From assembly GCA_024231215.1 (NCBI GenBank), contig JAAEQR010000206.1, forward strand, positions 3,112-67,111: DNA of 64,000 nucleotides, in the 5' to 3' direction. The DNA comes from PVC group bacterium (GTDB taxonomy: Bacteria; Omnitrophota; Gorgyraeia; B26-G9). A program made the position numbers and the translations under genes. Of this stretch, positions 1 to 62,654 are shown piece after piece (within the stretch, counting starts at the first letter, position 1; every line of letters begins with the position of its first letter). The notes below the pieces were generated by a model. It was not told the origin of the DNA and did no database searches. It saw only the letters and a program-made list of their open reading frames with translations.

Positions 1-10
1 GAGGAATTAA

Positions 11-5960: not shown

Positions 5961-6104
5961 GTACGATTTACTCAAATGACATAGAAGTAATCTTAAAAGA
6001 TGGCAGCAGGCATAAAGGCACTATAGCCGCGATTAGATATATTGTTGACAAAGCTATTGATGAAAAGCTTGAGAAGATAATTAAAGAGTTGAGAGAGGCA
6101 AAGA

Positions 6105-35279: not shown

Positions 35280-35564
35280 ATGCCAACAAAAGACCTATGT
35301 GAAGCCCACCATCAAAAATTATTGGGAATAGACAAGAAAATAGATGTTCAAATAGCCAAATTTGATGAAATAAACACTATACTTTGCGGTGGGCCTGATA
35401 AAGAAGGTAGGTTTCAAGTAGGATTTCTTTCTAAGTTAAAATGGGTTGAAAAAAAACAGGCCATTATTACAGGTGTATTCATATCCGTAATAACAGCCGT
35501 TGTAATTGCTGGTATTTTGTATGTTCCTACACTAATTAAAGCCGCTGAGATTGTTGGGAAGTAA
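35280..35564 (+). CDS. small protein with C-terminal transmembrane helix (holin-like candidate, weak)
   Basis: 94 aa. C-terminal ITGVFISVITAVVIAGILYV transmembrane segment. Last gene of the + strand block. Confidence 0.35.
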   Translation: MPTKDLCEAHHQKLLGIDKKIDVQIAKFDEINTILCGGPDKEGRFQVGFLSKLKWVEKKQAIITGVFISVITAVVIAGILYVPTLIKAAEIVGK

Positions 35565-35571
35565 TTTAATT

Positions 35572-35742
35572 TTCAAAAAAACTACATTCCTCGGCAAGTT
35601 TCTGAGCCTCGATTGCGATTTCATCTTCTTCACGGACTGAATAACCTTTTGCGTTAAGAAGGACATTTGTGTGCTGGTGTAACAGACCCGCCTTGTCGCA
35701 TGGCTTATAATGAATACAATCTTTACAATTAGCTCCTTCCAT
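35572..35742 (-). CDS. small Cys-containing protein (56 aa), not in ORF track (under 60 aa)
   Basis: Strong SD CCAGGAGGAATAAATG. MEGANCKDCIHYKPCDK... Reading frame checked by hand. Confidence 0.35.
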
Positions 35743-35925
35743 TTATTCCTCCTGGTTAATTAATTTAAGGGACCATAATTGCGCTTGCTCCAAATTGGTA
35801 AGAACAAGTGCTTTTGCCCTAATGTTACAATTAGGGGAATTAAAATTTTTTAACTCCTGTATTATCTTATCGATAGATCTGTTAGTGTCGTTAACCGGAA
35901 ATGTTATTTCTTCTCCCATATCCAA
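35743..35925 (-). CDS. small hypothetical protein (60 aa)
   Basis: SD GGAGGTTGGATATG. Abuts the downstream small gene. Confidence 0.4.
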   Translation of the reverse strand: MDMGEEITFPVNDTNRSIDKIIQELKNFNSPNCNIRAKALVLTNLEQAQLWSLKLINQEE

Positions 35926-35996
35926 CCTCCTATAGTAAAATTAATAACCAAACCACTCCTATTAGAGAGGCAATTAATGTTATATATATTATTGTT

Positions 35997-37583
35997 TTAT
36001 CGTGCATTGATTTCATATAATTCGCTGTTGTGTATAAAACATGTTTTGTGTAGTTCTACAAGTCTGCAATCGTTGTATATTGGTGTGTTTTCAAATACTT
36101 TTGCATCACCTCTTAAATCAGCAAATAGCTCCAGCTTGCAATCCTCTGAATTAAAAACAACCACATCATTTTTTTTCACTAACATGTTAACACTTAAAAA
36201 ATCGACATTTTCTATTATGGAACATTCGTATTGAGTATAGTTGTTTTTTAAATTAGCTATTAAGCAATTTGTTTTTGTGTCTTTTTTGTAAACCACAAAC
36301 AGCCATTTTCCCTGTCTATTAGCATCAACAATTATAGTGTTGTCCAATTCATGAATTTTTATATTAGAGCACTTGTCAAGTTCATATGGAATTGTAGCGG
36401 TGTATTTGCCAAAAATATCTTGTAGTATCACTCCTTGATATATTTTAGAACTGTTATAAGCTACTGTTGAAATGCATTTTTGTACTGGTATTATTTTGCA
36501 AAACTTTTCATATGTGGTTTGTAAAATTCCGATTTTTGCTATACTGTATATTGCGTTATTAAAAGAAGTGCCTTTTTCTTGTAAAACATCATCTAAAAAA
36601 AACATTAAATGTGTGGTGCCGGTATTAGGAAGATATAGTCTGTCGTTTTTATAAATAGATTTTTGTGTTAACACGTATCTATTACCATTTCTATATACTG
36701 CGTCCAAAATATTAGAATCATATTTAAATATTAATGTCGCCTTGATATCTGATTTATCGTCAACAAATAGTTTTCTTGTGACTTGTATATTCTCAGCACC
36801 CTCAGATTTTGGCGGAACATCTCTTTCTTTATTTACAAAAACCCTTTTAAAATAATCTAAATGGTTTTTCGGAATTGTGTTAAAGTCAATGTTCTTTGGC
36901 ACAGTGACAGTTTTGTCAAAAATAGATACATTTTTATTCATTCTATCTTCGAAGCCCAATGCATGTTTTCCCTTATATGGGTGTAGCCCAATATAAAGTT
37001 GAAAAGATATCAACGACCAAGAAAACCAATCCGATTGTTTTTTAAATGTGCCTAAAGGGTATAACCTGTCTCTGTATTGGTGCATTATGGCGTTGCATTT
37101 GAACGATTTGGTTTGAAAAGAATCTGTATCTATGTAATAAACTGTATTTGGAAATGTAATTAAAAAATTCATTTCATTGTAATCACCCACGATTATATTT
37201 TTTTCATGGATTTTAATTAATGTGTCTCGCATGCTATCCACAACGTCAGATATATTTTTAATGCTAAGATTGTTTCGTGTCTTGTACGATTTTGTAAACA
37301 GTTTACACAGGTATTCATAATTATCTATATAGCTTAACGTAAATCCTATTCGTTCGCTTTTCTCACTGTAAACACTTTCTTGAGGTATGACAATGTTTTT
37401 AATGGAGGCCAGATCCCGGAGTTCATATATTTTTTGTTCTGGGATCAACGTTGTTTTGTCGTGGTAAATTTTAAAAATAGTATTATCTTTTAAGAAGATG
37501 CTGCCCTGGCCTCCTTTGGCTTTGTAATCAGATTCTTTTAGGTATATTTTTTTACCACTTACAACAACGTTCTGAGACTTCAT
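35997..37583 (-). CDS. eukaryotic-like protein kinase fold protein (putative Ser/Thr kinase) with C-terminal extension
   Basis: Gly-rich loop KGGQGSIF. Catalytic-loop-like NIIVGDYNEMNFLI (compare HGDLHPGNIL). DFG-like YYIDTDSF. Subdomain IX-like WSLISFQLYIGLHPYKG (compare D.WSLG..LYEL..G..PF). Confidence 0.45.
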   Translation of the reverse strand: MKSQNVVVSGKKIYLKESDYKAKGGQGSIFLKDNTIFKIYHDKTTLIPEQKIYELRDLASIKNIVIPQESVYSEKSERIGFTLSYIDNYEYLCKLFTKSYKTRNNLSIKNISDVVDSMRDTLIKIHEKNIIVGDYNEMNFLITFPNTVYYIDTDSFQTKSFKCNAIMHQYRDRLYPLGTFKKQSDWFSWSLISFQLYIGLHPYKGKHALGFEDRMNKNVSIFDKTVTVPKNIDFNTIPKNHLDYFKRVFVNKERDVPPKSEGAENIQVTRKLFVDDKSDIKATLIFKYDSNILDAVYRNGNRYVLTQKSIYKNDRLYLPNTGTTHLMFFLDDVLQEKGTSFNNAIYSIAKIGILQTTYEKFCKIIPVQKCISTVAYNSSKIYQGVILQDIFGKYTATIPYELDKCSNIKIHELDNTIIVDANRQGKWLFVVYKKDTKTNCLIANLKNNYTQYECSIIENVDFLSVNMLVKKNDVVVFNSEDCKLELFADLRGDAKVFENTPIYNDCRLVELHKTCFIHNSELYEINAR

Positions 37584-37606
37584 TATAAACTCCGGGGAAA
37601 AGAGGG

Positions 37607-38323
37607 TTAAATATTCAACGATGCTGCTTGACCAGTACCTAAAACCATACTGGTAGAACTTACAGCATTCTCAATAAAATCAGATAATTTATCTATATCA
37701 TCAATTTTAAGATAGTGATTAAAACTGGCTTTACGATGAAACTCGTTTAGATAGTTAGAGCATTCGCCAGCATTAACACCGATTAAGATACTCATTGTGG
37801 ATTCTAAATCTTTAGATCGTCTTATTTCATCCATTGCATTTTTTATACTCTTTAAATCTGCTGTATTAGATGAGTTTTCATCTCCATCCGTTAAAACGAA
37901 ATAGATGGTATTAAGACAATCAATATTACCCGAAGCCATCAAATTCACCGCATAATCTTTTGTTGTTTCAATAGAATCCTGGGTTGCATCATGGAGAGGA
38001 GTTCCTCCATTAGGATCGAGTTCGTATTTTGTTGTATCTACTGATCCAATTGGAGTAAATCCGTGAATTTCTCGAATGCCTTTATAGCTATCAAAAGTAG
38101 CAACACGCAAAAGCAAGTTTTCACTTTTGGGGTGGCGTTGAAGGTTGTTAATAATCTTTTTAATACCTTCCTCCATTTCATCTTTAAACTCAAAAACAGA
38201 GCCAGTGGTATCAACCAGGATATTCACAATTGTATATTCCATTGCACCTAATTCATCCATAGGTACTGCGGAATAATTAAATTGATTTGGTGTTTCAAAC
38301 GTGTCAAAATTTTGTGCTTCCAT
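37607..38323 (-). CDS. von Willebrand factor A (vWA) domain protein
   Basis: Metal ion-dependent adhesion site (MIDAS)-like ILVDTTGS (DxTxS), GGTPLHDAT and VLTDGDEN motifs in vWA order and spacing. Confidence 0.55.
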   Translation of the reverse strand: MEAQNFDTFETPNQFNYSAVPMDELGAMEYTIVNILVDTTGSVFEFKDEMEEGIKKIINNLQRHPKSENLLLRVATFDSYKGIREIHGFTPIGSVDTTKYELDPNGGTPLHDATQDSIETTKDYAVNLMASGNIDCLNTIYFVLTDGDENSSNTADLKSIKNAMDEIRRSKDLESTMSILIGVNAGECSNYLNEFHRKASFNHYLKIDDIDKLSDFIENAVSSTSMVLGTGQAASLNI

Positions 38324-38331
38324 AGTTACTC

Positions 38332-39129
38332 CTATTTAAAATATTCAGTTGTTTTAGATATTTGCATACCTTTTGCAGTCATTTCATTCACAAAATCATC
38401 TCCCAAGTTTTCAAGCCCTGGTGCATTAACACAAGAACAAGCATCTTCAAGAAGCACAAACTTTTTCACTTCATCTTCAGAAAATTCATTTGCAATATCT
38501 CTTATTGTATTGGCAACACAAAAGTCTAATGCTTCGCCAGTAACAAGAATATCTTGCCCTGTTTTCAACATGTTAATAACCTGAGTGTTTAACATTGTTG
38601 TTGGGTCACCTGGGTATTCCACGTCTGCACGAACAGCGCTATAGTGTTCTGTATACACACAACTACCCTTTGGGACATAATTAAGCTTCTTAAATGTGGT
38701 TTCCCAAATCAAAAAAGCTTCTCTCAATTCTGGAACAATGGTAAAGCCCATATCAGCAATAAGACAATGGGGCGGCCATATACACAACACATAGCGACAA
38801 TTGTCTTTAAGTGATTTGACATAATCCAAAGACCATTGTTGCATGTTTGGATTGTATGCTTTCCATGTTCCATTTTCAACATCATCTACATTTATCACAG
38901 TAAACGGTGATGGGTGTTGGTTTTTGCTATCTTTCCACCACACAGGGTGCGCAATATGCACAGGGTGGTGACTATCTAATGTCGCGTGAATAGCTGAAAT
39001 TTGTGGTATGTTTTCACGTACCATTTTAGACAGCCGCGACATATCTTTGTCGGCACCTTGCACAAACAGTGCTCCGTTTGGGTCACAAAAATCGTATTGA
39101 CCATCAATGGTTAATAATTGAACAGCCAT
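38332..39129 (-). CDS. pncA: nicotinamidase/isochorismatase-family hydrolase (PncA-like)
   Basis: LLTIDGQYDFCDPNGALFV (compare E. coli PncA LLLVDLQNDFCAGGALAV). DSHHPVHIAHP (metal-binding His cluster). IWPPHCL (compare FWPDHCV). Catalytic-Cys motif VTGEALDFCVANT (compare VMGLATDYCVKFT). Confidence 0.7.
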   Translation of the reverse strand: MAVQLLTIDGQYDFCDPNGALFVQGADKDMSRLSKMVRENIPQISAIHATLDSHHPVHIAHPVWWKDSKNQHPSPFTVINVDDVENGTWKAYNPNMQQWSLDYVKSLKDNCRYVLCIWPPHCLIADMGFTIVPELREAFLIWETTFKKLNYVPKGSCVYTEHYSAVRADVEYPGDPTTMLNTQVINMLKTGQDILVTGEALDFCVANTIRDIANEFSEDEVKKFVLLEDACSCVNAPGLENLGDDFVNEMTAKGMQISKTTEYFK

Positions 39130-39511
39130 AGAACCTCCTTTAAAAAAACGTTCGGCCCCGGAAATCGGCTAAGAAAACCTAAGTAAGCTAAACTACGGTA
39201 TAGGCTACTGTAGTATAGTTACCGAACGTGTATATCTATTTGAATAAGCCGATTTTTTCATATTAATTAATTTAATTCATTTTTTATAAAAGTCAACAGT
39301 TATTTTTTTTCTCAAATAATAAAACTAAATTAATAAAAGAGAGCCCCTCGTATTGCACAACACAACTCTACTATATCGGCTTAGTGGGTATCTTGATAAA
39401 CAAGTACAACAAAGGGTATTATTATTAATGCCGATTTTTTTGGCAGTGTGGTAAGGCCTGCTTCCCCCACATCTTTTTTTCCACCCGTAAGGATCTGCCA
39501 TAGAGTAACCC

Positions 39512-40258
39512 TTAATTTTGTTTATGTTTACAACCACAAAAGACTCTCTTTGTTTCCACTAATAAAACTAAATTATAAATAAAAAACGTTGCTATTATAC
39601 CCAGGTATGGAGTCATTTCAACAGGGACACCGAGTAGCCACCAATCACAAAACATACCGGATTCTCTAAGGTATATCCATTGTTGATGTTTCCCCACTGC
39701 CCAATGGTCCCATATAAATTCCATTGGTATAATTATTATTGCCATACGTGTAAAATGTGCTGTATCAAATTTATCAAAATTAATTACAAACATTATTATT
39801 GCTGGTATTCCATAACAAATTGCTATTGATTTTCCACAATTACCAAACGCGACTAAGCCATACACCACAGACAATATTAACAATGGCAACAGTACTAATT
39901 TTAGCCAGTCAGCTTTAAAATCAATCCACTTTTTAAGGGGGTCCCAAAAATATAGAGTAATAAAAAAACTGCCTGTAATAGGATAAAAAAACCAATCCTC
40001 TATGTGAATTCCGAAGATCACAATACCTGTAACTGCATCTTCTGGAAATATCCAGGCTGGAAAGTTGCCGGCTTTGGTTAGATACCAATTCCAGCCCCAA
40101 CCTAAAGGCGTCCCTATTGCCATACAAATCCAATACACACGCCAATTTATTTTATTTCTGAAAAATATTATTACATTCACAACTGCAATTACAGCTAATG
40201 TGATAGGATATCCAGCCCTTCCTAATTTTGATTTAGGTTTTGGTGTTTTTGTGTTCAT
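39512..40258 (-). CDS. polytopic integral membrane protein (248 aa, Trp-rich)
   Basis: At least 6 hydrophobic helices and many Trp/Phe. Basic N-terminus. No catalytic motif recognised. Confidence 0.5.
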   Translation of the reverse strand: MNTKTPKPKSKLGRAGYPITLAVIAVVNVIIFFRNKINWRVYWICMAIGTPLGWGWNWYLTKAGNFPAWIFPEDAVTGIVIFGIHIEDWFFYPITGSFFITLYFWDPLKKWIDFKADWLKLVLLPLLILSVVYGLVAFGNCGKSIAICYGIPAIIMFVINFDKFDTAHFTRMAIIIIPMEFIWDHWAVGKHQQWIYLRESGMFCDWWLLGVPVEMTPYLGIIATFFIYNLVLLVETKRVFCGCKHKQN

Positions 40259-40758
40259 TTTCCCTTCTCAATCATTGTTTTTATTTCTTTTTGGTATGCT
40301 TCAATTAATTTATTAGTGGATGAATTATACGTTCCCCATATACCCAAAAACAGACTAATTGCAATTATAACAAGCGTAATTATTACCTTAAACAGGTCAC
40401 CACTTTTATTTTTAACAAAATCAAAAACCACTTTTCCTATTCCATCTATTGTTTTTCCTATTTTTTCATGGTGTTCATCATTTTCTTTTCGATTTTCTTT
40501 GAGGTTGCTTTCTATTCCTTCTATTGATTTTTCAATGTAATCAATTTTTAGCCCATGGAGAGATGTTACTTTTTCTGTTTCTGTTTGTTTATCCTCATTT
40601 ACCTCTGTTCGTGTTTTTAATTTATCGATAGCCTCAAATATTTTTTGATGTTCTACCAATTCTGATACTTTTTCAATCGTATAATTTGCTTTTATGCTTA
40701 CATCTTCTACTTGATCTGTCAAAATATCTACTTTTTTTTCTATGTTTTCTTTAGCCAT
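40255..40758 (-). CDS. coiled-coil protein with C-terminal transmembrane anchor (167 aa)
   Basis: Heptad-rich N-terminus, then a transmembrane segment IITLVIIAISLFLGIWG near the C-terminus. ATGA overlap with the downstream gene. Confidence 0.45.
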   Translation of the reverse strand: MAKENIEKKVDILTDQVEDVSIKANYTIEKVSELVEHQKIFEAIDKLKTRTEVNEDKQTETEKVTSLHGLKIDYIEKSIEGIESNLKENRKENDEHHEKIGKTIDGIGKVVFDFVKNKSGDLFKVIITLVIIAISLFLGIWGTYNSSTNKLIEAYQKEIKTMIEKGK

Positions 40759-40908: not shown

Positions 40909-41100
40909 TTAAATACAACCACCACAATGCCAGTGTTCTCCACATGATGGACAACTTCCACATCCACAATATTGGCAAACTTCACACTCTTCTTCACATT
41001 GACTATCAACAACATTATCTTCTGTTATCACTGTGCCACACCCACATTTAAGAGGTAATTCGCATGGCCCACATGGATAATTTTCAGCAACATTTTTCAT
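40909..41100 (-). CDS. very Cys-rich small protein (63 aa, about 17 Cys), metallothionein-like/zinc-binding
   Basis: CGPCELPLKCGCG...CEEECEVCQYCGCGSCPSCGEHWHCGGC. SD GGAGGAAATTATG. Confidence 0.45.
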   Translation of the reverse strand: MKNVAENYPCGPCELPLKCGCGTVITEDNVVDSQCEEECEVCQYCGCGSCPSCGEHWHCGGCI

Positions 41101-47505: not shown

Positions 47506-48108
47506 TTAACTCCTATACTTTTCAACAATATTATTTAGCTCATCAATAAATAATTCAATTTCTATTCTAAGCAAACGAATAAAGGCATCATTTCTCTCCC
47601 ACCTTACAATTAAAGGCTTAAAACCTCTACAGTAGCTCACCAAATCCCACCATTGGCGACCGGTAACCAATAGACACCCCTGTACCTGCTGGAAATGTTC
47701 GGACTCCGACCACCCATTTTCGAGCCTGTCGAGGTGAACATGTGGAGCTGCATTTTTCGTTTCAAACCCGCCATGCTCACCGACAAGCCCATCAGGAGAA
47801 CAACCAAAAGTTTTATTTTTGTCGAAGAAGCAAAATCCGACTTGTTCAACTTTGACTTCATTAATAAACTCATACATTTTTCTGGATTCATCTTCACGCT
47901 CGTGCCCAAGCTCCATATTTGCATTTGTGTATCCATTTGCCTTTTCACCGGTAACTATTTCACCAGCCAACTCATACAAGTATTTTTTTCGTTGAGATGA
48001 TCTTTTTCCGGTAGACGTAACAATCTTTTTGAAGTTAGAAGCTGTCGGCTTGCCCAATCTGGCTTGATACCATTCATCACTATTCTGTTCACAATCAATT
48101 ATTATCAT
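47506..48108 (-). CDS. YqaJ-type viral recombinase exonuclease (lambda-exonuclease-like)
   Basis: N-terminus QNSDEWYQARLGKPTASNF matches the YqaJ signature (Q.S.EWL..R.GkiTASe). Confidence 0.6.
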   Translation of the reverse strand: MIIIDCEQNSDEWYQARLGKPTASNFKKIVTSTGKRSSQRKKYLYELAGEIVTGEKANGYTNANMELGHEREDESRKMYEFINEVKVEQVGFCFFDKNKTFGCSPDGLVGEHGGFETKNAAPHVHLDRLENGWSESEHFQQVQGCLLVTGRQWWDLVSYCRGFKPLIVRWERNDAFIRLLRIEIELFIDELNNIVEKYRS

Positions 48109-48892
48109 TGGTTTTCTCCTTTTTTGTCTCCTTTTTTATTTTTTTTATGGTTTCATTGGCATTCAAAGCGATTATTGCAATATTATGCATTTTTTTTGGA
48201 ATTGATTCGATATTTGCTACACCAAGACAATTTAAAAATTTTTCAACATTGGCTTCAGTGTGTGCAATCATATCAAGGATTTGATGTTTTTGCTCGTCAT
48301 CTATATATTCTTCCATCTCACCACTAGACCCGTCATCATCTTGGTCGTGTGTTGCTAACCCGGTTAGTGACAACAATGTATATCGTTGTAGATAGGTATT
48401 TGTTGAACCTATTGCCTGTAAATTGTTTTTCCGCCCTGAGTTATCTGCACCGGCAGAAAGCGAAGTACTTTCGCTGTAGCCCATTGAATGCGTTATGGTG
48501 CATGTTACTGTAATATTGCCGTCTTTCTGGTCTGTTTGCCATGCCGCCGATAGTCCATGTGTAGCTAATGCGCTATTGATTGTATTGGTGACATTACCAA
48601 GGCTTGCATGGGTGTATCCAGTAGCGCTCCCATCTTTATTGTTATATCCAACTTTTTTATCTTTTACAATTTTGGGTGGATCGCTTTTAAAATTTGCCAT
48701 AGCTTGAGTATAAGCTTTTTTAGCTTGCATATCATCCCACTTAGCTTGTAATTCAAGCATTTTTTCCATTTTTCCAAGATCAATATCTTTTGACATGGCC
48801 ATTTGCAATACTGCTATGGGCGAGCCATTGGACTCTATTGCTTCGATTTGTGTTTCTGCCGGAGTCTCTGCTAATTCAAATTTATTCTCCAT
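48095..48892 (-). CDS. putative single-strand annealing protein (ERF/RecT-like) partnered with the exonuclease
   Basis: Adjacent to and overlapping the YqaJ gene (classic exo + SSAP pair). GSTNTYLQRYTL segment. Family not resolved by eye. Confidence 0.4.
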   Translation of the reverse strand: MENKFELAETPAETQIEAIESNGSPIAVLQMAMSKDIDLGKMEKMLELQAKWDDMQAKKAYTQAMANFKSDPPKIVKDKKVGYNNKDGSATGYTHASLGNVTNTINSALATHGLSAAWQTDQKDGNITVTCTITHSMGYSESTSLSAGADNSGRKNNLQAIGSTNTYLQRYTLLSLTGLATHDQDDDGSSGEMEEYIDDEQKHQILDMIAHTEANVEKFLNCLGVANIESIPKKMHNIAIIALNANETIKKIKKETKKEKTNDNN

Positions 48893-52662: not shown

Positions 52663-53244
52663 TTGATTAATGTGGCTACAAGAAAGAAAATATCCTCAAG
52701 AAAACTAACCCAAATGGAGCTTGCGTTCTGCTATGAATATGTAGCAAACAAGTTCAACGGGAAGCAGGCCGCAATAGCCGCTGGATACAGTGTAAAGACA
52801 GCAGAAGTACAAGCATCGGACTTATTAAGTAGACCTAAGCTGAAACTCAAGGTAAAGCAGCTCACAGATAAGTATCTAAAAAAGGTAGAATATACCGGCG
52901 AATCCATTCTAAACGAATTAGCAATATTAGGGTTTTCTGATATGAATGATATGTTAAACGAGGATGAAAATGGTGATTTAACATTGAAATCATTAAAAGA
53001 TATGGGATATAACACACGGTGCATCCAACAATTGGAAATAACTAATACAACGCGATCATTTAAGGACTCCACAGAGACCCAAACAGACCAAAAAATCAAA
53101 TTTAAGCTGTATGATAAGAGAGCAACATTAGAATTAATAGGAAAAAACCTACAGCTATTCACGGATAGAATACACCACACAGGTGAAGTGAACAACACAG
53201 TACAAGTATACATTCCTGATAATGGCCGAAATAACAAGGATTAA
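52663..53244 (+). CDS. terminase small subunit
   Basis: Immediately upstream of and overlapping the large terminase. N-terminal HTH-like segment KLTQMELAFCYEYVANKFNGKQAAIAAGYS, typical of small terminase subunits. Confidence 0.5.
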   Translation: MINVATRKKISSRKLTQMELAFCYEYVANKFNGKQAAIAAGYSVKTAEVQASDLLSRPKLKLKVKQLTDKYLKKVEYTGESILNELAILGFSDMNDMLNEDENGDLTLKSLKDMGYNTRCIQQLEITNTTRSFKDSTETQTDQKIKFKLYDKRATLELIGKNLQLFTDRIHHTGEVNNTVQVYIPDNGRNNKD

Positions 53245-55180
53245 ACCGCAGGCCGGCCCTCAAGAAAAGTTTTTATCATCCAATGCAGATATAGTAATAT
53301 TTGGTGGTGCAGCATACGGCGGAAAGTCATTTGGGTTGTTGCTGGAATCAATTAGATATATACAAGATCCACGATATAATGGAGTAATATTTCGAAGGGA
53401 ATCACCACAAATAACATCCGGTGGAGGATTATGGGATACGGCGGGGCAGATATATCCTCATGTGGGCGGAATAGCGAACGAGGGGAAATTAAAATACACA
53501 TTTCCTACAGGGGCATACAATAAATTCACTCATTTACAATATGAAAAAGATAAGCTTAATCACCAGGGTGCACAATATGTTTTTATAGGATTTGACGAAT
53601 TAACTCATTTTTCAGAAACACAATTTTGGTATCTGCTCACACGTAACCGCCCACCATCAGGATGTAATATCAGGCCATATTGTCGATGTACAACGAATCC
53701 GGAGGCTGATAGTTGGGTAAGAGAGCTAATAATATGGTGGATTGATGAAAACACAGGGTATGCTATACCTGATAGGTCTGGAATTGTACGATATTTTACG
53801 CGAATTGACGAAGAAATCATATGGGTGGATAAGGATTGGACAGATGAAAGCGGAAATAAGGCAAGGTCTATTACATTTATACCTTCATTTTTAGAAGATA
53901 ATCCATTGGGTATAGCTGCTGACCCTATGTATCAGAGCAACTTACAAGCACAAGATAAAGTAACACGTGAACGGCTATTGAAGGGAAATTGGAATATAAC
54001 ATATAAGGGTGGAATGATGAATCCAGGCTGGTTTAAGATCCTAGAAAATTTCCCGCCTATGAAATATGTACGGTATTGGGATAGGGCCGCGACTGAGCCC
54101 AAAGACGAAAATGATGACCCAGATTGGACGGTGGGGGCTAAGTGTGGGATGCATGGAGGGGAGTTATATATAGAGGATATAGTCCGTTTCCGTGATACTC
54201 CAGCCCAAAATGAGGAAAAAATATTAAATTGTGCGGATAATGACGGCTATGATGTGTCTATTGGGTATGAAATAGAACCTGGAAGCGCTGGCGTTGAAGT
54301 CGCCGAACATTATCAAACTAAGATATTGAAAGGTTATACGGTAATATTAGACAGGCCAAAAGGTAATAAAGTGGAGCGGTGTAAGCCCTGGGCGGCACTT
54401 GCGGAACATGCACATGTATACATCAAAAAAGCCGCTTGGAATAGGCAATTTCTTGCTGAAATAGGCAGTTTTCCACTTGAAAAAAAAGACCAAGTAGACG
54501 CGGTGTCCGGTGGATATAAGATGCTGACAAGAGATAAGTATATTTTTCCAGCATTTAAATTGTCGGATACAAAAAAAATAACAATAGAATGGGAACCCAA
54601 GAAAAGTAAGGCCCATATGCACCATTACGGAGCAATGGTACAACTGCCGGACATGAGCCTGTGGATGCTGGAGGTGTTGTATCATGCAATTGATAACAAA
54701 ATGTATGTATATGGGTGCTGGAAAACCAATAATCCGGCTCCTGCGCTGGTTGTGCCTGTGATAATTAGCAGAATGCATCTCAAAGAGTTCATGATTAAGC
54801 GCTTGTTGGTCTCAGATCACATAATGCATGCCATAGCGCCAAAAAAAGCACCGTATTATTTTTACCGCAAGGAATTTATCAAGAAAAAATGTAGGCCGAA
54901 ATTAAGTGAAAGTATATTATACGATGAATCAGGCTCAATTGTGATGGCTACTGAAATGTTTATGAGGCAGCAAATAATATTTAGCCATGAAGCTAAACCA
55001 GCAGCACAGCAGGTGTCGGGCTGGACAATTGACAAGGGGAAGCCGTCTAAGGAGAACAGTGCGTATTGCGAAGGCCTGCTAATGATTATATCAGAGCTGA
55101 AAAGGATGAGAATAATACAGAAAAAGCCACCCAAACCAAGGGATTATAAAATAGTTAGAACAGTTGCAAGAAATTTTTAA
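53222..55180 (+). CDS. terL: terminase large subunit
   Basis: Walker A-like ADIVIFGGAAYGGKSF near the N-terminus. Walker B-like FIGFDELTHF. 652 aa with a C-terminal nuclease-sized domain. Confidence 0.75.
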   Translation: MAEITRIKPQAGPQEKFLSSNADIVIFGGAAYGGKSFGLLLESIRYIQDPRYNGVIFRRESPQITSGGGLWDTAGQIYPHVGGIANEGKLKYTFPTGAYNKFTHLQYEKDKLNHQGAQYVFIGFDELTHFSETQFWYLLTRNRPPSGCNIRPYCRCTTNPEADSWVRELIIWWIDENTGYAIPDRSGIVRYFTRIDEEIIWVDKDWTDESGNKARSITFIPSFLEDNPLGIAADPMYQSNLQAQDKVTRERLLKGNWNITYKGGMMNPGWFKILENFPPMKYVRYWDRAATEPKDENDDPDWTVGAKCGMHGGELYIEDIVRFRDTPAQNEEKILNCADNDGYDVSIGYEIEPGSAGVEVAEHYQTKILKGYTVILDRPKGNKVERCKPWAALAEHAHVYIKKAAWNRQFLAEIGSFPLEKKDQVDAVSGGYKMLTRDKYIFPAFKLSDTKKITIEWEPKKSKAHMHHYGAMVQLPDMSLWMLEVLYHAIDNKMYVYGCWKTNNPAPALVVPVIISRMHLKEFMIKRLLVSDHIMHAIAPKKAPYYFYRKEFIKKKCRPKLSESILYDESGSIVMATEMFMRQQIIFSHEAKPAAQQVSGWTIDKGKPSKENSAYCEGLLMIISELKRMRIIQKKPPKPRDYKIVRTVARNF

Positions 55181-55343: not shown

Positions 55344-55547
55344 ATGTATTTTGTGTATTACGGTGGCTCCGGAGAGGTAAGCGCATTGATAAATTTCGAG
55401 ACAATGTCAGGGGCTACTAATTACATCGAGGGAAAAATAGAGCAGGGACACTATTTGTCCGACTTTGTTGTGATATGTGGAAGAAGAAAAAAACTGAGAA
55501 TGGAGCCAGTTATAATTAAAACGGGAATAGAGATAGTAGATGAATAA
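55344..55547 (+). CDS. small hypothetical protein (67 aa)
   Basis: SD TAAGGAGATGTGACATG. Confidence 0.35.
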   Translation: MYFVYYGGSGEVSALINFETMSGATNYIEGKIEQGHYLSDFVVICGRRKKLRMEPVIIKTGIEIVDE

Positions 55548-55902
55548 ATCACCAGCAATAAAAGTAAAGCCCAATATATGGGATAGCAAAGAGTTTGAGA
55601 AGCCCTACCACGGGGCAAGGAGAAATAGAGGGATGCCTAGCGCGATGGAGCCAATACAGGAATATACAGAGCAGGGCCGCAAGAATTTCGACAAGTGTTT
55701 CAAGCAGGAAGACAAGGTAAACAATTGCGGTAAAGTGAAAAAATGTAAGAAAAATTGCGAATATCGCAGCATGAGAACTGAGAGCGAGTGTGCGTGGTAT
55801 ATTGATATTGACAAGTGCGATACGAAGAAAGTAAAGAAGCCTAAACTACTAAAGGTAGATTACAGGCCGCCACTAACGGGAATGGGAATATATGATAAAT
55901 AA
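55540..55902 (+). CDS. Cys-containing basic protein (120 aa)
   Basis: Intact ORF, ATGA overlap. CGKVKKCKKNCEYRS ... C..C. Confidence 0.4.
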   Translation: MNKSPAIKVKPNIWDSKEFEKPYHGARRNRGMPSAMEPIQEYTEQGRKNFDKCFKQEDKVNNCGKVKKCKKNCEYRSMRTESECAWYIDIDKCDTKKVKKPKLLKVDYRPPLTGMGIYDK

Positions 55903-56269
55903 GAAAGATATAAATGTATTAATCAGAGATCCACTACCAGGAAGATCTTTTCGCTGGCCTATTACATATAAGGAGAAAGAGATTGGAACGATATTATTTA
56001 ATTGTTGGCCCAAAGAGTCGGATTCAAAAATAATTACTGGGGTGAGGAAAGAAGCTAAGATGATGTGTACATTGGAACATATTGAGGTGTTTGAAGAGTA
56101 TAAGCGGCAGGGAGCTGCATACAGGGCTCTTGTGTTGTGGCTTCCCGGCTTTGATCGAGTTGACACACGGGCGAACTCATGGGCAGCCATGAAGCTAATT
56201 GTAAAAGCTGGTTTTCGCACAGGAAATAGTGTGGATTATATATGGGAGAGAGAAAAAAAAGATGATTGA
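55892..56269 (+). CDS. possible GNAT-type acyltransferase (weak)
   Basis: VFEEYKRQGAAYRALVLWL resembles GNAT motif A. Low certainty. Confidence 0.3.
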   Translation: MINKKDINVLIRDPLPGRSFRWPITYKEKEIGTILFNCWPKESDSKIITGVRKEAKMMCTLEHIEVFEEYKRQGAAYRALVLWLPGFDRVDTRANSWAAMKLIVKAGFRTGNSVDYIWEREKKDD

Positions 56270-56501
56270 TGAGCGTATATATAAAAATGCGTATAAGCCC
56301 TATGATATCGTGACCAACGAAATCGGAGACGTGGGAGTTATAACAGAGACCAGTGTGGATGAATAAACCTGTTGGTGGTAGAAAAAATCCCGCATATTTT
56401 TGTGTTCGTGATTCAGAAAATTATTATTCATCCGGCATGGGCTGGACAATACCTGTTGACACAGAAGGTCTCATTGTTGTTACATTAAGAGAGGTGAAGA
56501 A

Positions 56502-56795
56502 GTGAAAAGTAGTACCATAACAATAGTAGAAACCGCTGATTATCCGGAAAGCTATGTGGAATTTGTCGCGTGGGTTACTAAGTGGGTTCGGAAAATACCA
56601 GAGGAGTATTTAAATAAGGCAGAAATATCATTTAACCAAACAGCCTGGGATGGTGTAGCAGTTGAAATATATTACAAAAACATGGAGATTGAAGAAGCAA
56701 ATAGGCTAATAAAGAAGTTTGAAGTAGAGGAAAAAGAGATAGCTGAATATCTTAGGCTACGTGAAAAATACAAGTACCATAGGAATTTAGAGTGA
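56502..56795 (+). CDS. hypothetical protein (97 aa)
   Basis: SD GAGAGGTGAAGAAGTG, with GTG or ATG start uncertain. Overlaps the next gene. Confidence 0.35.
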   Translation: MKSSTITIVETADYPESYVEFVAWVTKWVRKIPEEYLNKAEISFNQTAWDGVAVEIYYKNMEIEEANRLIKKFEVEEKEIAEYLRLREKYKYHRNLE

Positions 56796-57658
56796 AAACA
56801 GCAATAACAACATTAGTAAGCTCAGATAAGTTTCAACATTATCTACCACTATATATATATGTAGTACGCAAGGAGTATCCTGAGTATTTTCTAAAGACAT
56901 TTATCACGGGAAAAATTAATCCATTAGTTGCCAAGGCGCTTGATTATCTAAGGAGCCAGGGGGTGCGGTTTGATGAGCCCATAGAGGTATTTAAGGATAT
57001 TAAGCTAATTGATTCCACTGCTAACAGCTTAAGGTTCTTGACAAGTGAGAGATATTTTGAGGGCATGGATAATGTAATATATACCGATGCTGATTTGTTA
57101 TTGTTTCGAAATAGCCCCACATTAGAACAATGGCATATCAAAAGAATGAAAAAAATGAAAACATGTTATGCAGGACATCACGGGCCTTGGAGGAAAAAGT
57201 ATAGGCCGGAAATATCTAAGGCAGGTTGGAGGGGCAATTTTGAGCGGGTTTCAGCAGGATTTGTCATGGTTACACAGCAATGGTTTAAGAAGACGAGAAA
57301 AGCCAGGAAATCCTTTTTGAATAAAGCTAAGAAGGGTAAATTAGGAGGGTTCAGGGAATTTGATGAGGTTATGTTGGGGTGCATTGTGAAAAGCTCTGGC
57401 CTTCCTATGCCTCCATTTAGGTTTTGTAAGAAGCAACGGGGAATCCATCTGGGAGATTTTAAAAAGCAGATGAGTCGTAGATTTACAAGAAAAAAGAAAA
57501 TGAAAAAATGTGTAGCACCTCAACCAGTATTACAATTTCAGGCCTTGGAAAAGGACCCTATTTGGGTTGGGGTGCTAAGGATAATGGAAAAATGCCCATA
57601 TCTAATGGAAATAATAGATAATGCAAGAAAACGTTTAAGGCGGAGGTTGAAGTATTGA
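56792..57658 (+). CDS. putative GT-A-like glycosyltransferase/nucleotide-sugar transferase (288 aa)
   Basis: VIYTDADLLLF DXD-like motif. Very basic C-terminal tail. Weak. Confidence 0.3.
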   Translation: MKTAITTLVSSDKFQHYLPLYIYVVRKEYPEYFLKTFITGKINPLVAKALDYLRSQGVRFDEPIEVFKDIKLIDSTANSLRFLTSERYFEGMDNVIYTDADLLLFRNSPTLEQWHIKRMKKMKTCYAGHHGPWRKKYRPEISKAGWRGNFERVSAGFVMVTQQWFKKTRKARKSFLNKAKKGKLGGFREFDEVMLGCIVKSSGLPMPPFRFCKKQRGIHLGDFKKQMSRRFTRKKKMKKCVAPQPVLQFQALEKDPIWVGVLRIMEKCPYLMEIIDNARKRLRRRLKY

Positions 57659-57984
57659 TGTTTAGTTTCATGAGCAAAAAAAAGGCTAAAGAAGAGATAA
57701 AATCTCTGGTGAAAGACTGGGGTGACATCAGAGGTAAAGAGATAAAAAAATGGTTGAAAGACGAGCTTGAACTTTTATTTGGGTGGGGTGAAAGTGGCGA
57801 CTATTACGATTGGGACAACGACGGTGATTCAAAAATAAAAAGAATAATGTTTAATATATTTGATGAAAAGTTGGAAAAGGCACTTAAAAAAGCTGTTGAA
57901 AAACATATTAACGGTGAAGAGTTTGTTGATAAAATTATTGAACGTATTAACAGAAAGCAGTTGGGAAGGAAGAGATGGGAATAA
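57655..57984 (+). CDS. hypothetical protein (109 aa)
   Basis: ATGA overlap. K/E-rich. Confidence 0.4.
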   Translation: MMFSFMSKKKAKEEIKSLVKDWGDIRGKEIKKWLKDELELLFGWGESGDYYDWDNDGDSKIKRIMFNIFDEKLEKALKKAVEKHINGEEFVDKIIERINRKQLGRKRWE

Positions 57985-58256
57985 AAAGCGAAACTGAATG
58001 CCCTAAGTGTAGGGCAACGTATCATAACATAAAGCATATAAGAAAAGCAAACAAAGTAATGATTGTATGTTCCGATTGTGCCTATGAGTGGAGTGTATCT
58101 GCGCTGGACAAAAAAGTTATAACAGAGGAAGCGGCTATAAAAATAATAAGCAAAAGCGATTTAGCAGAAATGAAAGCAATTGTGTCGGAAAATATGGTGG
58201 AAAAAATTGTAGATGTAATGCTGAATAAGATTATCGGTTTGGTAGACGACGAATGA
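57975..58256 (+). CDS. small zinc-ribbon protein (93 aa)
   Basis: CPKC...(19 aa)...CSDC motif. Confidence 0.4.
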   Translation: MGIKSETECPKCRATYHNIKHIRKANKVMIVCSDCAYEWSVSALDKKVITEEAAIKIISKSDLAEMKAIVSENMVEKIVDVMLNKIIGLVDDE

Positions 58257-58639
58257 TACAACAAAAACCAAAAACAGCCAAGGGGTACTACTACTATCAT
58301 AGATTGATGTGGAGTAGGCTGGTTAAGGAGATGGAAAAGGGGAAAGTTCTTGACACTGGCTTAAAATACAGTGTATGGAATAGTTTGTTTGATTTTGATG
58401 GCGAGGAGTGCAATCACTGCTTTGCTTGCATGTGGAAAGATGATGATGTGACGGTTCGGGAGTATGTGTACTATATCGCCGAAGATGGCGATTGTGAAGA
58501 TGAGTGTTTGTTGCATTATACGCCAGAAGATGGAAAGTGCTTAGGTGGATTATACGAAGCAGCAACCGGAGTAAGTCAATACAGAATAGAAGCGGCTAAG
58601 GAAATACGTGATTTACCTATGAAGGATAAGTGGAAATGA
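58253..58639 (+). CDS. Cys-rich hypothetical protein (128 aa)
   Basis: CNHCFAC...CEDEC. ATGA overlap. Confidence 0.4.
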   Translation: MIQQKPKTAKGYYYYHRLMWSRLVKEMEKGKVLDTGLKYSVWNSLFDFDGEECNHCFACMWKDDDVTVREYVYYIAEDGDCEDECLLHYTPEDGKCLGGLYEAATGVSQYRIEAAKEIRDLPMKDKWK

Positions 58640-59367
58640 AATTCCAATTAATAATAAGAGGACGCAACTGCACAAAGTACGTTAAAAAATGTCTTGATTC
58701 GGTGTTAGCACAGACACATAAGGATTGGAAAGCAACTGTATGCCTCGATGCTCCTACGGATAATAGTTATGAAAAAGCTATAAAATATACGAAGGATAAA
58801 AGAATATCTGTATATCGCAACAAAAAACGGCTTGGTGTAGCACACAACATGGTAGAGACTATAATGTTAGCAGCACCTGACGACACCGATATATTAGCTA
58901 TAGTAGACGCGGACGATGAAATACCAAAAAATGCTTTACATATGGTAAATAAAGAATATGAAAAGAACCCTCTATTGAGATTGACGTATGGCTCTTTCTG
59001 GCGGTTGGACAAGAAGAGACGTACGAAGACGAGTAGAAGATATAAGAGCAATGTTAGTGTTAGAAAACAGGATTGGCATGGGAGCCATTTAAAGACGTTT
59101 CGCTATGATCTATACAAACGTATTCCACACAGGTATTTTAAACATGACAACAACAATAAGTGGTTTATGGCGGCGTCGGATTTGGCTCTCATGTTTCCTC
59201 TGTTTGATTTGTTAGGTGTTGATCGGTATAAAACACACACGAAATACGTAAAAGAAATAACGTATAAATGGAATAGAACATCGGATAAAACGCGAGGGCA
59301 TGAACAATACAGGAACAAGCAATTGATTAAGAAAAAGAAACCATTGAAGAGGTTGGAGCATGTGTAG
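58630..59367 (+). CDS. family-2-like glycosyltransferase (GT-A)
   Basis: N-terminal LIIRGRN...CLDSVLAQTHKDWKATVCLDAPTDNS ... AHNM resembles the GT2 core (S..Q.....e.i.vDD.S.D ... N.G). Confidence 0.5.
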   Translation: MEMKFQLIIRGRNCTKYVKKCLDSVLAQTHKDWKATVCLDAPTDNSYEKAIKYTKDKRISVYRNKKRLGVAHNMVETIMLAAPDDTDILAIVDADDEIPKNALHMVNKEYEKNPLLRLTYGSFWRLDKKRRTKTSRRYKSNVSVRKQDWHGSHLKTFRYDLYKRIPHRYFKHDNNNKWFMAASDLALMFPLFDLLGVDRYKTHTKYVKEITYKWNRTSDKTRGHEQYRNKQLIKKKKPLKRLEHV

Positions 59368-59662
59368 CAGTTGCGATCAAAAAGAAAAGTGTGACAAGAA
59401 AAATAAGACAGAACTACCGAACAAATACATTAAGGATGTTGTGGGTGTGTTTGCCGATTGGCTGAAAAAGGAAGCGCCCAATATGATTAAGAAAGGTGAG
59501 CTGAATAGGAGATGTTATTCTATCAATAGAAGCTTTAAAACAAAAAGGCAGGCCATGTTTTACAATCCACTGAAAAGAGATGCAGAAAAATTTAAAGGCG
59601 TGTCAGTGCATATGCTAGTGGAATTTGATTTTGAAAAGATTCCAAAGATGGAGGATGAGTGA
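59360..59662 (+). CDS. small Cys-containing protein (100 aa)
   Basis: MCSSCDQKEKCDKK N-terminus. Overlaps neighbours. Confidence 0.4.
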   Translation: MCSSCDQKEKCDKKNKTELPNKYIKDVVGVFADWLKKEAPNMIKKGELNRRCYSINRSFKTKRQAMFYNPLKRDAEKFKGVSVHMLVEFDFEKIPKMEDE

Positions 59663-60045
59663 GTACAATATTATTTTCAGGGAGATTTGACAGGCCGCAT
59701 ATAGGGCATATGATTACTATTGGCAGGTTGGGACAGCAATATGATAAGGTAATTATTGTGGTGTTGGATTACCCAGAGCAGAAGTATCCAATAGATGAGC
59801 GGGTAAATACTTTGCGTAATGCTCTGTACCTAATGAGAATGAGAGGATCATATCAAATTGTGGTCTCAAAACACCATTTTGGTGAAATAGAGACAAAACA
59901 ATTAAAAGAAGAAATCCCCTGGTTTGATGTGTATGGCAGTGGCAATAGAGAGGTTTTGGAGAATATGAAACAAAATATATATCCAACACAAAGAGTAGAA
60001 CACATACCCCGATACCCCGGATATTCAGCGAGTGAGGAAGGGTGA
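59659..60045 (+). CDS. cytidylyltransferase-family nucleotidyltransferase (TagD/LicC-like, HxGH motif)
   Basis: ILFSGRFDRPHIGHM matches the (T/H)xGH signature of the cytidylyltransferase superfamily (GtFDllHaGH). 128 aa. Confidence 0.55.
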   Translation: MSTILFSGRFDRPHIGHMITIGRLGQQYDKVIIVVLDYPEQKYPIDERVNTLRNALYLMRMRGSYQIVVSKHHFGEIETKQLKEEIPWFDVYGSGNREVLENMKQNIYPTQRVEHIPRYPGYSASEEG

Positions 60046-60821
60046 AAACACTATTGGTATTATCGGTAGGCGTAGAATTTGGGTGGCTGCTATGCACTTT
60101 TATTCCAGCTATACGTTACAAATCACGTGGATATAACAGGACAGTAATTGTATGCGACCCAGAACATAGATACTTATACCAGGATTTTGCAACGGATTTT
60201 GTGAATTATAATAAGAAGATAGAGGGTGTGGGCTACTATGGCTGGTCTCCGAAAAAGAAACTAAAAATGCCAAGAGGAATATCAAGAAAATATCCAGGGG
60301 CTAAAATAATAACACCAACAAAAAAAATATGCACTGATGCACCAATGGTGTATTATAAGTATGGAAAATATAATGACAAATTGCATTCAGATATAATTAT
60401 TCATGCACGGTCTGAGGCAAAATTCAACAGAGAGAAACGAAATTGGCCTATACACCATTATGTAAAACTAATTAAAAAGCTGAGGGCACACAGGGATTTA
60501 TCTGTGTGTTCGGTGGGGACGAAGGAAGGCGCGCACCATATACCGGGCACATTGGATTTGAGAGGAATCCCATTAGAGGCGTTGTGTAATAGAATGGCGA
60601 GTAGTTCAGTAGTTGTAGGTTGTAGCTCGGGGCCTCTTCATTTGGCGAGTTTGTGCGGATGCCCCCATGTGGTATGGACTGACAAGAAATATCAGGAAGC
60701 GATTAAGGGTACAAATAAGGATAGGTATAAAAAATTGTGGAACCCATTCGGTACACCGGTGAAAGTTATAGATGTGGGGTGGCAACCGAGCATTGAGGTT
60801 GTTTATGAGGTATTAAGATGA
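60042..60821 (+). CDS. putative GT-B glycosyltransferase (GT9 heptosyltransferase-like)
   Basis: ASSSVVVGCSSGPLHLASLCGCPHVVW resembles the GT9 motif (gnDSGpmHlAaA.g.P.v.l). Confidence 0.4.
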   Translation: MKTLLVLSVGVEFGWLLCTFIPAIRYKSRGYNRTVIVCDPEHRYLYQDFATDFVNYNKKIEGVGYYGWSPKKKLKMPRGISRKYPGAKIITPTKKICTDAPMVYYKYGKYNDKLHSDIIIHARSEAKFNREKRNWPIHHYVKLIKKLRAHRDLSVCSVGTKEGAHHIPGTLDLRGIPLEALCNRMASSSVVVGCSSGPLHLASLCGCPHVVWTDKKYQEAIKGTNKDRYKKLWNPFGTPVKVIDVGWQPSIEVVYEVLR

Positions 60822-60991
60822 AAGATGATATGAAAAAAACTACAGGGGTGTGTGATTCGTGTGGAGACAAGGAGTGCATAGAATGTGGTAGTAAATTACA
60901 CATAATAGAAATAAGTTTTTATAATGACGAAGAAGACAACGCCTGTTTGTGTAGAAGATGTTTAAGGAGTGCTTTGGAGATGTTGAAATGA
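60818..60991 (+). CDS. small Cys-rich protein (57 aa), paralog of the 61097-61297 gene; not in ORF track
   Basis: CDSCGDKECIECG...CLCRRCLRSALEMLK, compare ...CSICI...WICKDCLKKALEALK. Frame and stop verified by hand. Confidence 0.35.
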   Translation: MKDDMKKTTGVCDSCGDKECIECGSKLHIIEISFYNDEEDNACLCRRCLRSALEMLK

Positions 60992-61089
60992 AAATAACGT
61001 TCTGCGGAAATAATAGAAAATGGGGTGGTGTGGCGATCAAAGATATTTATGATTTCTTGTATTGTCAAGATTGTTTGAAAATTTTATAA
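60988..61089 (+). pseudogene. truncated duplicate of the N-terminus of the downstream glycosyltransferase (33 codons)
   Basis: MKITFCGNNRKWGGVAIKD..., compare MKITFFGNNKKWGGLANNG at 61294. The nucleotide similarity is visible directly. Confidence 0.5.
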
Positions 61090-61096
61090 GGGAATT

Positions 61097-61297
61097 ATGC
61101 CAAGAGAAGTAAACCAAAAAAACTATTATCAAGGCCCGGACAACGGTGCTATATATTATCAGGGTGAAAACGAATGTAGTATATGCATTACCCAAACAGA
61201 TGTAGTGGCATTAGAAAATGATATTATAGATGATAATGGTCATTTGATATGGATTTGCAAAGACTGCCTAAAGAAAGCGCTGGAGGCGTTAAAATGA
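61097..61297 (+). CDS. small Cys-rich protein (66 aa)
   Basis: CSICI...ICKDCLKK. Stop overlaps the glycosyltransferase start (ATGA). Confidence 0.4.
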   Translation: MPREVNQKNYYQGPDNGAIYYQGENECSICITQTDVVALENDIIDDNGHLIWICKDCLKKALEALK

Positions 61298-62636: not shown

Positions 62637-62654
62637 TTTAATGGAGGATATTTT

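Follow-up and report, generated by a model that had tools for sequence, protein, structure and literature searches.

A predicted nicotinamidase, vWA protein and protein kinase encoded together in a phage genome fragment appear to be a reduced form of a conserved module associated with NAD+ salvage

Results

A three-gene cassette in a leftward phage arm

We analysed a 64-kb stretch of DNA (positions 3,112 to 67,111 of contig JAAEQR010000206.1, assembly GCA_024231215.1; hereafter the window), taken from a source contig of 71,941 bp that is binned as a 'PVC group bacterium' metagenome-assembled genome (MAG). Our subject is a cassette of three minus-strand open reading frames (ORFs), genes A, B and C, which together fill positions 35997-39129 exactly. 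Gene A (38332-39129, 265 aa) encodes a predicted divergent nicotinamidase of the PncA/Pnc1 type with an isochorismatase fold. Gene B (37607-38323, 238 aa) encodes a TerY/YegL-type vWA protein with a metal ion-dependent adhesion site (MIDAS) motif; its C-terminal tail is conserved and rich in Ser and Thr. Gene C (35997-37583, 528 aa) encodes a Hanks-type Ser/Thr protein kinase (residues ~1-260) joined to an all-beta domain particular to this family (~280-528). A first-pass annotation of the same DNA, made from the sequence, had proposed a self-contained early module of these three genes for counter-defence or host takeover. The limits it gave for the genes are exact and all of the motifs it named are present.

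Gene A is preceded by a ribosome-binding site (AAAGGAGG). The sequence TAGGAG follows its stop codon, with the ATG of gene B 8 nt downstream, and GGAG follows the stop codon of gene B, with the ATG of gene C 23 nt downstream. The packing of the three genes is operon-like, with ribosome-binding sites lying within the 8- and 23-nt spacers. The window is a fragment of a phage genome, and this context is clear from the portal gene (8880-10934) and the large terminase (53222-55180) and from the recombination genes ERF (48095-48892) and YqaJ (47506-48108) in the leftward arm. A small terminase is also present, and the leftward arm further contains HNH, DUF1367 and DUF6745 genes. The cassette occupies the distal end of this arm and is followed by two small ORFs, after which the structural operon ends convergently at 35564. 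A blastn search with positions 35500-40500 against 50,697 phage records returned no match at the DNA level. The proximity of the recombination genes suggests that the cassette may be expressed early, and in a related phage contig (locus L166) the cassette likewise lies amid ERF, SSB and Sipho_Gp157 genes, which is compatible with early expression and says nothing on timing.

Upstream of gene A lies an AT-rich intergenic gap of 382 bp (39130-39511), which the first-pass annotation had described as a 380-bp regulatory gap. The gap exists, and the regulatory label was not supported. A tRNA scan and a search of Rfam gave no match, a repeat search gave nothing notable, and the promoter and terminator scan found no terminator-like site inside it. 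Its RNA fold z-score of -0.65 indicates no unusual structure, and the count of 31 sigma-70-like sites between 35300 and 40400 shows no enrichment over shuffled sequence (24.4 +/- 4.6). The equivalent spacer measures 53 bp in one related phage (L001) and 168 bp in another (L166). With these scans empty and the length differing among relatives, we dropped the idea of a regulatory region.

Gene A belongs to a divergent clade of predicted nicotinamidases

As a single sequence gene A matched yeast Pnc1 in the PDB (2h0r) with E=8e-4. Using a family profile built from 30 diverse homologues the match to Pnc1 reached 4e-15 and nicotinamidases made up six of the seven best matches, with the Leishmania, M. 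tuberculosis, Pyrococcus and Acinetobacter enzymes following Pnc1 in the list. Alignment to Pnc1 places D9, K154 and C204 of gene A opposite the catalytic triad D8, K122 and C167, and D52, H54 and H121 opposite the metal ligands D51, H53 and H94. The aromatic pair F14 and W118 falls opposite F13 and W91. Two of the motifs involved are W118-P-P-H121-C, which corresponds to the WPxHC of nicotinamidases, and the oxyanion motif G198-x-A200-x-x-x-C204, opposite G-V-A-L-E-Y-C167 in Pnc1. Residues D9, F14, D52, H54, W118, H121, K154, G198, A200 and C204 are invariant across the 30 homologues. What sets nicotinamidases apart from other enzymes of the isochorismatase fold is the metal site, Asp-His-His, together with the pyridine cage of Phe and Trp. 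Because the triad, the metal site, the aromatic pair and G198-x-A200 are all invariant, and the metal site discriminates within the fold, we strongly infer that gene A is a divergent nicotinamidase, predicted to convert nicotinamide to nicotinate and NH3. The nicotinamidase call of the first-pass annotation was therefore upheld by the invariant catalytic and metal residues, by the profile match to Pnc1 and by relatives that sit beside pncB, nadE, nadD and NrtR. Public annotation lists gene A only as a 'hypothetical protein'.

A word-index search returned 1665 homologues of gene A at E<=1e-3, the best 120 of which share 50-86% identity, and many homologues carry a precomputed match to the Pfam Isochorismatase family PF00857. 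To judge from these sequences the clade is unusually well conserved. It shares with PncA and Pnc1 the Asp-Lys-Cys triad, the metal site, both motifs and the genomic partners pncB, nadE, nadD and NrtR. It differs in length, at ~265 aa compared with 180-216 aa, the additional residues lying between the metal-site motifs and after the catalytic cysteine, and in forming a separate clade that scores far under the curated PncA model. Unlike canonical pncA, genes of this clade almost always have genes for a vWA protein, a PP2C and a kinase downstream of them.

Gene B is a vWA protein and gene C a probable kinase

The Pfam scan did not recognise gene B of the window itself, and the Pfam VWA model was reached by 6 of 20 members of its family; the word-index search gave 19 homologues at E<=1e-3. 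At NCBI it is named 'VWA domain-containing protein', and one homologue carries a YegL/TerY-type annotation from the Joint Genome Institute. Since the gene B vWA profile matched no PDB sequence, we turned to a comparison of folds. The AlphaFold2 model has a pLDDT of 87.5. Each of the best 50 PDB matches that Foldseek gave for it (E 1e-8 to 4e-6) is a vWA domain, an integrin I domain or a protein containing a vWA domain, in agreement with the first-pass assignment. The MIDAS of gene B consists of D38-T-T-G-S42, T108 and T145-D146-G. Across the family no substitution is seen at D38, T108 or D146, and conservation of S42 is 90% or more. The C-terminal tail shows a conserved S-S-T-S-x-x-L-G-S-G pattern, making it a plausible candidate phospho-acceptor.

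One structural match to gene B is the archaeal ArnAB complex (8s05_B), from the module of ArnA and ArnB that represses motility. The vWA protein of the pair, ArnB, is cytoplasmic; eukaryotic-like kinases phosphorylate it and a phosphatase opposes them. The likeness to gene B is at the level of the fold only (15% identity), and ArnB differs in having the FHA protein ArnA as its partner and archaellum expression as its output.

The kinase domain of gene C contains the glycine loop G24-G25, the beta-3 lysine K38, the catalytic loop D134...N139 and the metal-binding D152, together with a subdomain-IX-like SDWFSW stretch. G24, G25, K38, D134, N139 and D152 are invariant in 53 homologues, as the first-pass proposal of a kinase fold would lead one to expect, and because the catalytic residues are intact and invariant gene C is probably an active kinase. 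A word-index search found 234 homologues at E<=1e-3. The C-terminus is all-beta, with ~24 strands in ~250 aa. Searching with this domain by HMMER against 1.84 billion representative proteins returned 312 proteins at E<=1e-3; among the 150 matches listed most are ~480-585 aa long with the match at the C-terminus, as in the gene C family, and the shorter proteins may be fragments. The NCBI entry for gene C, GY853_13915, is 314 aa long and covers residues 215-528. It starts at residue 215, and the kinase domain is therefore wholly absent from the public annotation.

The cassette is a reduced form of a four-gene module

Homologues of gene A are present in at least 181 IMG/VR contigs, many of 200-480 kb, and in ~395 GTDB species. 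The bacterial carriers include Armatimonadota (complete Capsulimonadaceae chromosomes), Pyrinomonadaceae, Desulfobacterales, Thiotrichaceae and Spirochaetota. We scanned 166 loci with local profiles that we had built of the A, B, C, PP2C, PncB, NadE, NadD and Nudix proteins. Each unique locus entered the counts once and had to have 8 kb or more of flanking sequence downstream (65 viral and 45 genomic loci). Gene B was present in 58/65 viral and 35/45 genomic loci, a PP2C phosphatase gene in 53/65 and 24/45, and gene C in 55/65 and 29/45. All three were found in 50/65 viral and 23/45 genomic loci, and among these full sets the order A-B-PP2C-C was kept in 50 of 50 viral and 22 of 23 genomic cases. 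The order recurs in more than 70 independent loci, in phages and in several bacterial phyla. Conservation of gene order as such extends to more than 100 independent loci, which together with the many homologues of each protein speaks against a chance arrangement. In the reciprocal test we started from 73 viral loci seeded with the kinase and found PP2C in 73/73, gene A in 70/73 and gene B in 70/73. Of the three loci that lack gene A, two belong to jumbo phages whose module genes are scattered across more than 10 kb. The kinase family is thus almost never found without gene A and the coupling is almost obligate. On the basis of these gene arrangements and sequence matches, the cassette in the window is best described as a reduced, PP2C-less form of a conserved nicotinamidase-vWA-PP2C-kinase module.

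The wider neighbourhood links the module to NAD+ (nicotinamide adenine dinucleotide). At least one of pncB, nadE and nadD lies within 10 kb in 27/65 viral (~40%) and 19/45 genomic loci. Unbiased clustering of the neighbouring ORFs placed A, B, C and PP2C at the top, followed by pncB (54 loci) and a 231-aa Nudix protein (29 loci). By its Pfam match the latter is NrtR, the regulator of NAD that responds to ADP-ribose. Lower in the ranking were Metallophos, PARP (WGR and catalytic domain), a 307-aa Nudix protein, NadE, an RNA ligase, NADAR and RtcB. Individual loci illustrate these associations. A 2.28-Mb spirochaete contig has the arrangement pncB-nadE-A-B-PP2C-C-NrtR, the Capsulimonadaceae chromosomes carry A-B-PP2C-C-pncB between housekeeping flanks, and a 234-kb phage-like contig has pncB-nadE-nadD-Nudix and then A-B-PP2C-C. 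The link of the module to NAD+ is well supported by this genomic context. The first-pass description of a self-contained phage cassette did not survive the comparison, as the cassette is a reduced copy of a module that is also found in bacterial chromosomal NAD-salvage operons with housekeeping flanks and NrtR.

Other NAD+ and ADP-ribose genes also occur near the module. These are PARP with WGR, NADAR and Macro (L035 5852-7138, L012 4137-4616, L167 3655-4101 and 11577-12392), with Apyc1 in one locus, a 30-kb phage contig arranged Macro-...-Metallophos-A-B-PP2C-C-...-Apyc1. The pattern suggests that module-bearing phages carry NAD+/ADP-ribose 'islands'. A-B-PP2C-C is also present on a 31-kb contig (L159) binned to a Promethearchaeota (Asgard) MAG. 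This copy could be a mis-binned viral contig, as the window is, or a genuine archaeal copy.

A PP2C-less sublineage

The compact A-B-C arrangement without PP2C is shared by the window, by L001 (an 85-kb contig whose gene A is 76% identical) and by L166 (a 64.6-kb contig whose gene B is 74% identical). In all three the B-C spacer is 17-24 nt and the beta domain of gene C is ~35 residues shorter. The nearest outgroup that we found, phage L168 (61.5 kb; gene A 69% identical), has kept A-B-PP2C-C. Because this outgroup retains PP2C, the loss looks derived within a small lineage of ~60-85-kb phages, and on the sequence comparison the PP2C-less form looks like a real sublineage.

Neighbouring genes and the rest of the window

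The gene directly upstream of the cassette, at 39512-40258 (minus strand), specifies a multi-pass membrane protein of 248 aa whose domains are of the lycopene-cyclase type, which is unusual in a phage. It matches TIGR03462 (E=2e-9, just under the cut-off) and Pfam PF18916 (E=4e-4), with no sequence match in the PDB. L001 is without this gene and has DUF1367 directly before gene A. Between DUF1367 and the lycopene-cyclase-like gene in the window lies a 63-aa cysteine-rich ORF with several CxxC pairs (40909-41100, minus strand). Downstream of gene C is a 60-aa ORF (35743-35925, minus strand) with a likely start at ATG 35919 and a strong AGGAGG ribosome-binding site. We considered this ORF as an Acb2/Tad1 sponge and rejected the idea: the match to Pfam Acb2_Tad1_hairpin was weak (E 0.0075), and there was no match to Acb2/Tad1 in the PDB and none in PHROG. 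The ORF is probably not a sponge protein.

The phage also carries a cluster for sugar or head-group modification at 1-8310 (plus strand) and possibly at 55540-63272 (plus strand). The ORF at 4916-5788 encodes an NAD-dependent sugar epimerase/dehydratase (PDB 6dnt, 5e-52). The remaining matches, made by region and not per ORF, are to GT2 and GT1 glycosyltransferases, FkbM-type and other methyltransferases, LicD, a choline/ethanolamine-kinase-like protein, a CTP_transf_like cytidylyltransferase and a sulfotransferase. The single CTP_transf_like match (E 6e-6) has no local NadD profile match and falls in a region that also has choline-kinase and LicD matches.

Discussion

We propose, with a probability of roughly 60%, that genes A, B and C form one operon, a PP2C-less derivative of the conserved four-gene module, and that this module is devoted to salvaging NAD+ along the deamidated route. 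The likeliest function would be phospho-regulated salvage of nicotinamide to NAD+ through the Preiss-Handler pathway. Conserved active-site chemistry and genomic context suggest a first step in which the gene A enzyme would hydrolyse nicotinamide to nicotinate and ammonia in a metal-dependent reaction. To our knowledge every enzyme that cleaves NAD+, the defence NADases of the SIR2/TIR type and the ADP-ribosyltransferases among them, releases nicotinamide as the pyridine product. The genomic context further suggests that nicotinate would then enter the Preiss-Handler pathway (PncB, NadD, NadE) to yield NAD+, with enzymes supplied here by the host and, in ~40% of related phage loci, encoded by the phage beside the module. 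In the third step, the weakest, which is modelled on gene order and on the TerY-P systems discussed below, B and C may act as a switch that works by phosphorylation and either controls A or serves as its scaffold. Kinase C could sense a signal through its private all-beta domain and then phosphorylate a partner, most likely the Ser/Thr-rich C-terminal tail of B, while the MIDAS site of B would bind a partner in a metal-dependent manner. The conserved tail and the intact MIDAS together suggest that B may be both substrate and adaptor. PP2C would reset the switch in most relatives; with its loss in this phage lineage the switch would be one-way, which may suffice in a lytic infection. The phage would gain a steady supply of NAD+ and possibly a means of recovering after defence-driven NAD+ depletion. 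A counter-defence role for the cassette is plausible, if speculative.

Several observations weigh against this proposal. Gene A scores far below the curated models, with 31.3 bits (E=1.6e-7) against a cut-off of 174 for the NCBIfam PncA model NF008623 and 15.3 bits against 27 for PF00857. Its clade is also ~50 residues longer than canonical PncA enzymes, and the extra residues mean that a larger pyridine-carboxamide substrate is possible. Local profiles found no pncB, nadD, nadE, Nudix or PP2C gene in the 64-kb window. What ties B and C functionally to A is the order of the genes. The classification of MAGs and of viral contigs is imperfect, as the position of the window in a PVC-group MAG bin illustrates. 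Finally, removing nicotinamide would relieve the product inhibition of SIR2-type NADases, which could harm the phage. The window was also searched for other routes into NAD+ metabolism: Pfam found no PRPP-synthetase-like, NAMPT/NAPRT, PnuC or NadR gene in the minus-strand arm and 41 further ORFs, a set outside which the large structural ORFs lie.

An alternative is that nicotinamide removal is itself the purpose of the module. It would relieve product inhibition of NAD+ consumers that the phage needs, such as ADP-ribosyltransferases, PARP-like enzymes or sirtuins, or alter host sirtuin activity, with the kinase and vWA protein timing the effect. There is a precedent in yeast, where Pnc1 activates Sir2 by removing nicotinamide. 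Phage loci repeatedly place the module next to genes for PARP (WGR and catalytic domain), NADAR, Macro, Nudix and Metallophos proteins, which would fit such a role, as would the many ~60-kb module-bearing phages that have no Preiss-Handler genes nearby. However, no PARP, Macro, Sir2 or NADAR family, and thus none of these NAD+-consuming enzymes, was present among the window ORFs scanned, and the strongest recurrent neighbours are the biosynthetic genes pncB, nadE and nadD and the regulator NrtR. We consider this explanation unlikely as an account of its own, and note that it largely overlaps with salvage and is compatible with it.

The vWA and kinase genes raise a second alternative through their resemblance to TerY-P systems. 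In PMC11090510, TerY-P is described as a vWA protein, a PP2C and a kinase that ends in a zinc ribbon (the CoCoNuT-linked form) or an OB fold (the defence form). The same paper, citing Anantharaman 2012 and Gao 2020, reports the triads as linked to restriction systems or as stand-alone defence. The first-pass annotation had likened genes B and C to TerY-kinase signalling pairs. This analogy turned out stronger than had been claimed, because nearly all relatives carry PP2C between B and C and so form the full vWA-PP2C-kinase triad; it fell short in that the triad matches no PADLOC TerY-P model. The module relatives share with TerY-P the three-component logic, the gene order and a TerY/YegL-type vWA protein with an intact MIDAS. 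They differ in that the gene C family ends in a private all-beta domain in place of the zinc ribbon or OB fold given there for TerY-P kinases, and in that the genes coupled to the triad are those of a nicotinamidase and of NAD salvage instead of restriction or ter genes. The window itself differs further, with no match to PP2C anywhere in its 64 kb and genes B and C only 23 nt apart. None of 20 B-family, 3 PP2C and 4 kinase members matched the PADLOC TerY-P models, the only matches being weak ones to the PD-T4-6 kinase, and, this similarity apart, no PADLOC defence model matched A, B, PP2C or C.

If the module were nevertheless a conflict system of this kind, the vWA-(PP2C)-kinase unit would sense infection or superinfection and turn on A, destroying the nicotinamide pool and starving competitors that depend on the phage NAD+ reconstitution pathways NARP1 and NARP2. 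It would act in superinfection exclusion when phage-borne and in defence when bacterial. Such triads are recognised in conflict systems, TerY-P-like modules acting as stand-alone anti-phage systems according to PMC11090510, and nicotinamide is consumed by both NARP1 and NARP2. In one phage the module also lies near the anti-defence gene Apyc1. Yet the lack of matches to the TerY-P models and the missing zinc ribbon or OB fold at the kinase C-terminus stand against such a system, and in bacteria the module occurs in housekeeping surroundings, alongside pncB and NrtR, and outside defence islands. Moreover, nicotinate still feeds NAD+ through PncB, so the pool would be converted and not destroyed. 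We regard a conflict system as improbable. The last alternative, that gene A is a generic isochorismatase-family hydrolase acting on another amide or ester and that the adjacent vWA and kinase genes are meaningless, could appeal to the sub-threshold Pfam and NCBIfam scores and to the insertions relative to canonical PncA, but it is very improbable and disfavoured by the data, given the invariant Asp-His-His site and Phe/Trp cage, the predominance of nicotinamidases among the best PDB profile matches (six of seven), the A-B-PP2C-C order in more than 70 independent loci and a kinase family almost never found without A.

A salvage module of the kind we propose would differ from the phage routes to NAD+ described so far. 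NARP1 consists of Adps and Namat and NARP2 of Nampt and Nmnat, a nicotinamidase having no part in either (bioRxiv 10.1101/2024.02.11.579819), and NARP3 consists of PnuC and NadR, again without a nicotinamidase (PMC13464706). Like these pathways, the module comprises phage-borne genes acting on NAD+ breakdown products or precursors that would raise NAD+ during infection. In contrast, it would enter by deamidation of nicotinamide and the four-step Preiss-Handler route, of which the window phage supplies only the first enzyme, and it has a kinase/vWA regulatory layer that is present in none of NARP1-3. Gut jumbo phages with pncA, pncB, nadD and nadE, and with complete Preiss-Handler sets, have been reported (PMC11662467), and many of the module-bearing loci are likewise jumbo-phage contigs with Preiss-Handler genes. 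The window phage, at ~72 kb and with a nicotinamidase but not the rest of the pathway, is different, and the terms kinase, phosphatase and vWA occur zero times in that paper. A survey of viral NAD+/ADP-ribose systems (PMC9503650) makes no mention of PncA, isochorismatase, TerY or PP2C, and neither does a survey of jumbo phages (PMC7824862). In the literature that we searched, outside which most subscription journals lie, there was no link between a nicotinamidase and a vWA-PP2C-kinase set, no phage anti-defence nicotinamidase and no kinase of an NrtR regulon. The association of a nicotinamidase with a TerY-P-like triad is strong and broad, and is apparently undescribed.

NAD+ depletion is a major theme of bacterial immunity, and the three routes by which phages rebuild NAD+ that have been described since 2024 involve neither nicotinamide deamidation nor a signalling layer. 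It is possible, and we offer this as a tentative extension of the salvage proposal, that the module is an unrecognised, phosphorylation-gated entry to NAD+ salvage common to bacteria and phages, and a fourth phage strategy for NAD+ reconstitution. The sensor domain of the kinase would detect NAD+ breakdown or the state of infection and switch on the nicotinamidase, allowing phages to outlast depletion of the SIR2/TIR type. If true, this would be the first time that an enzymatic output has been identified for a TerY-P-like triad. The three-gene form without PP2C in the window would provide a natural minimal version of the module that is friendly to experiment. Should the coupling of B and C to A be functional, NAD+ salvage in bacteria would be under post-translational control and TerY-P-like triads would gain a concrete output that can be assayed.

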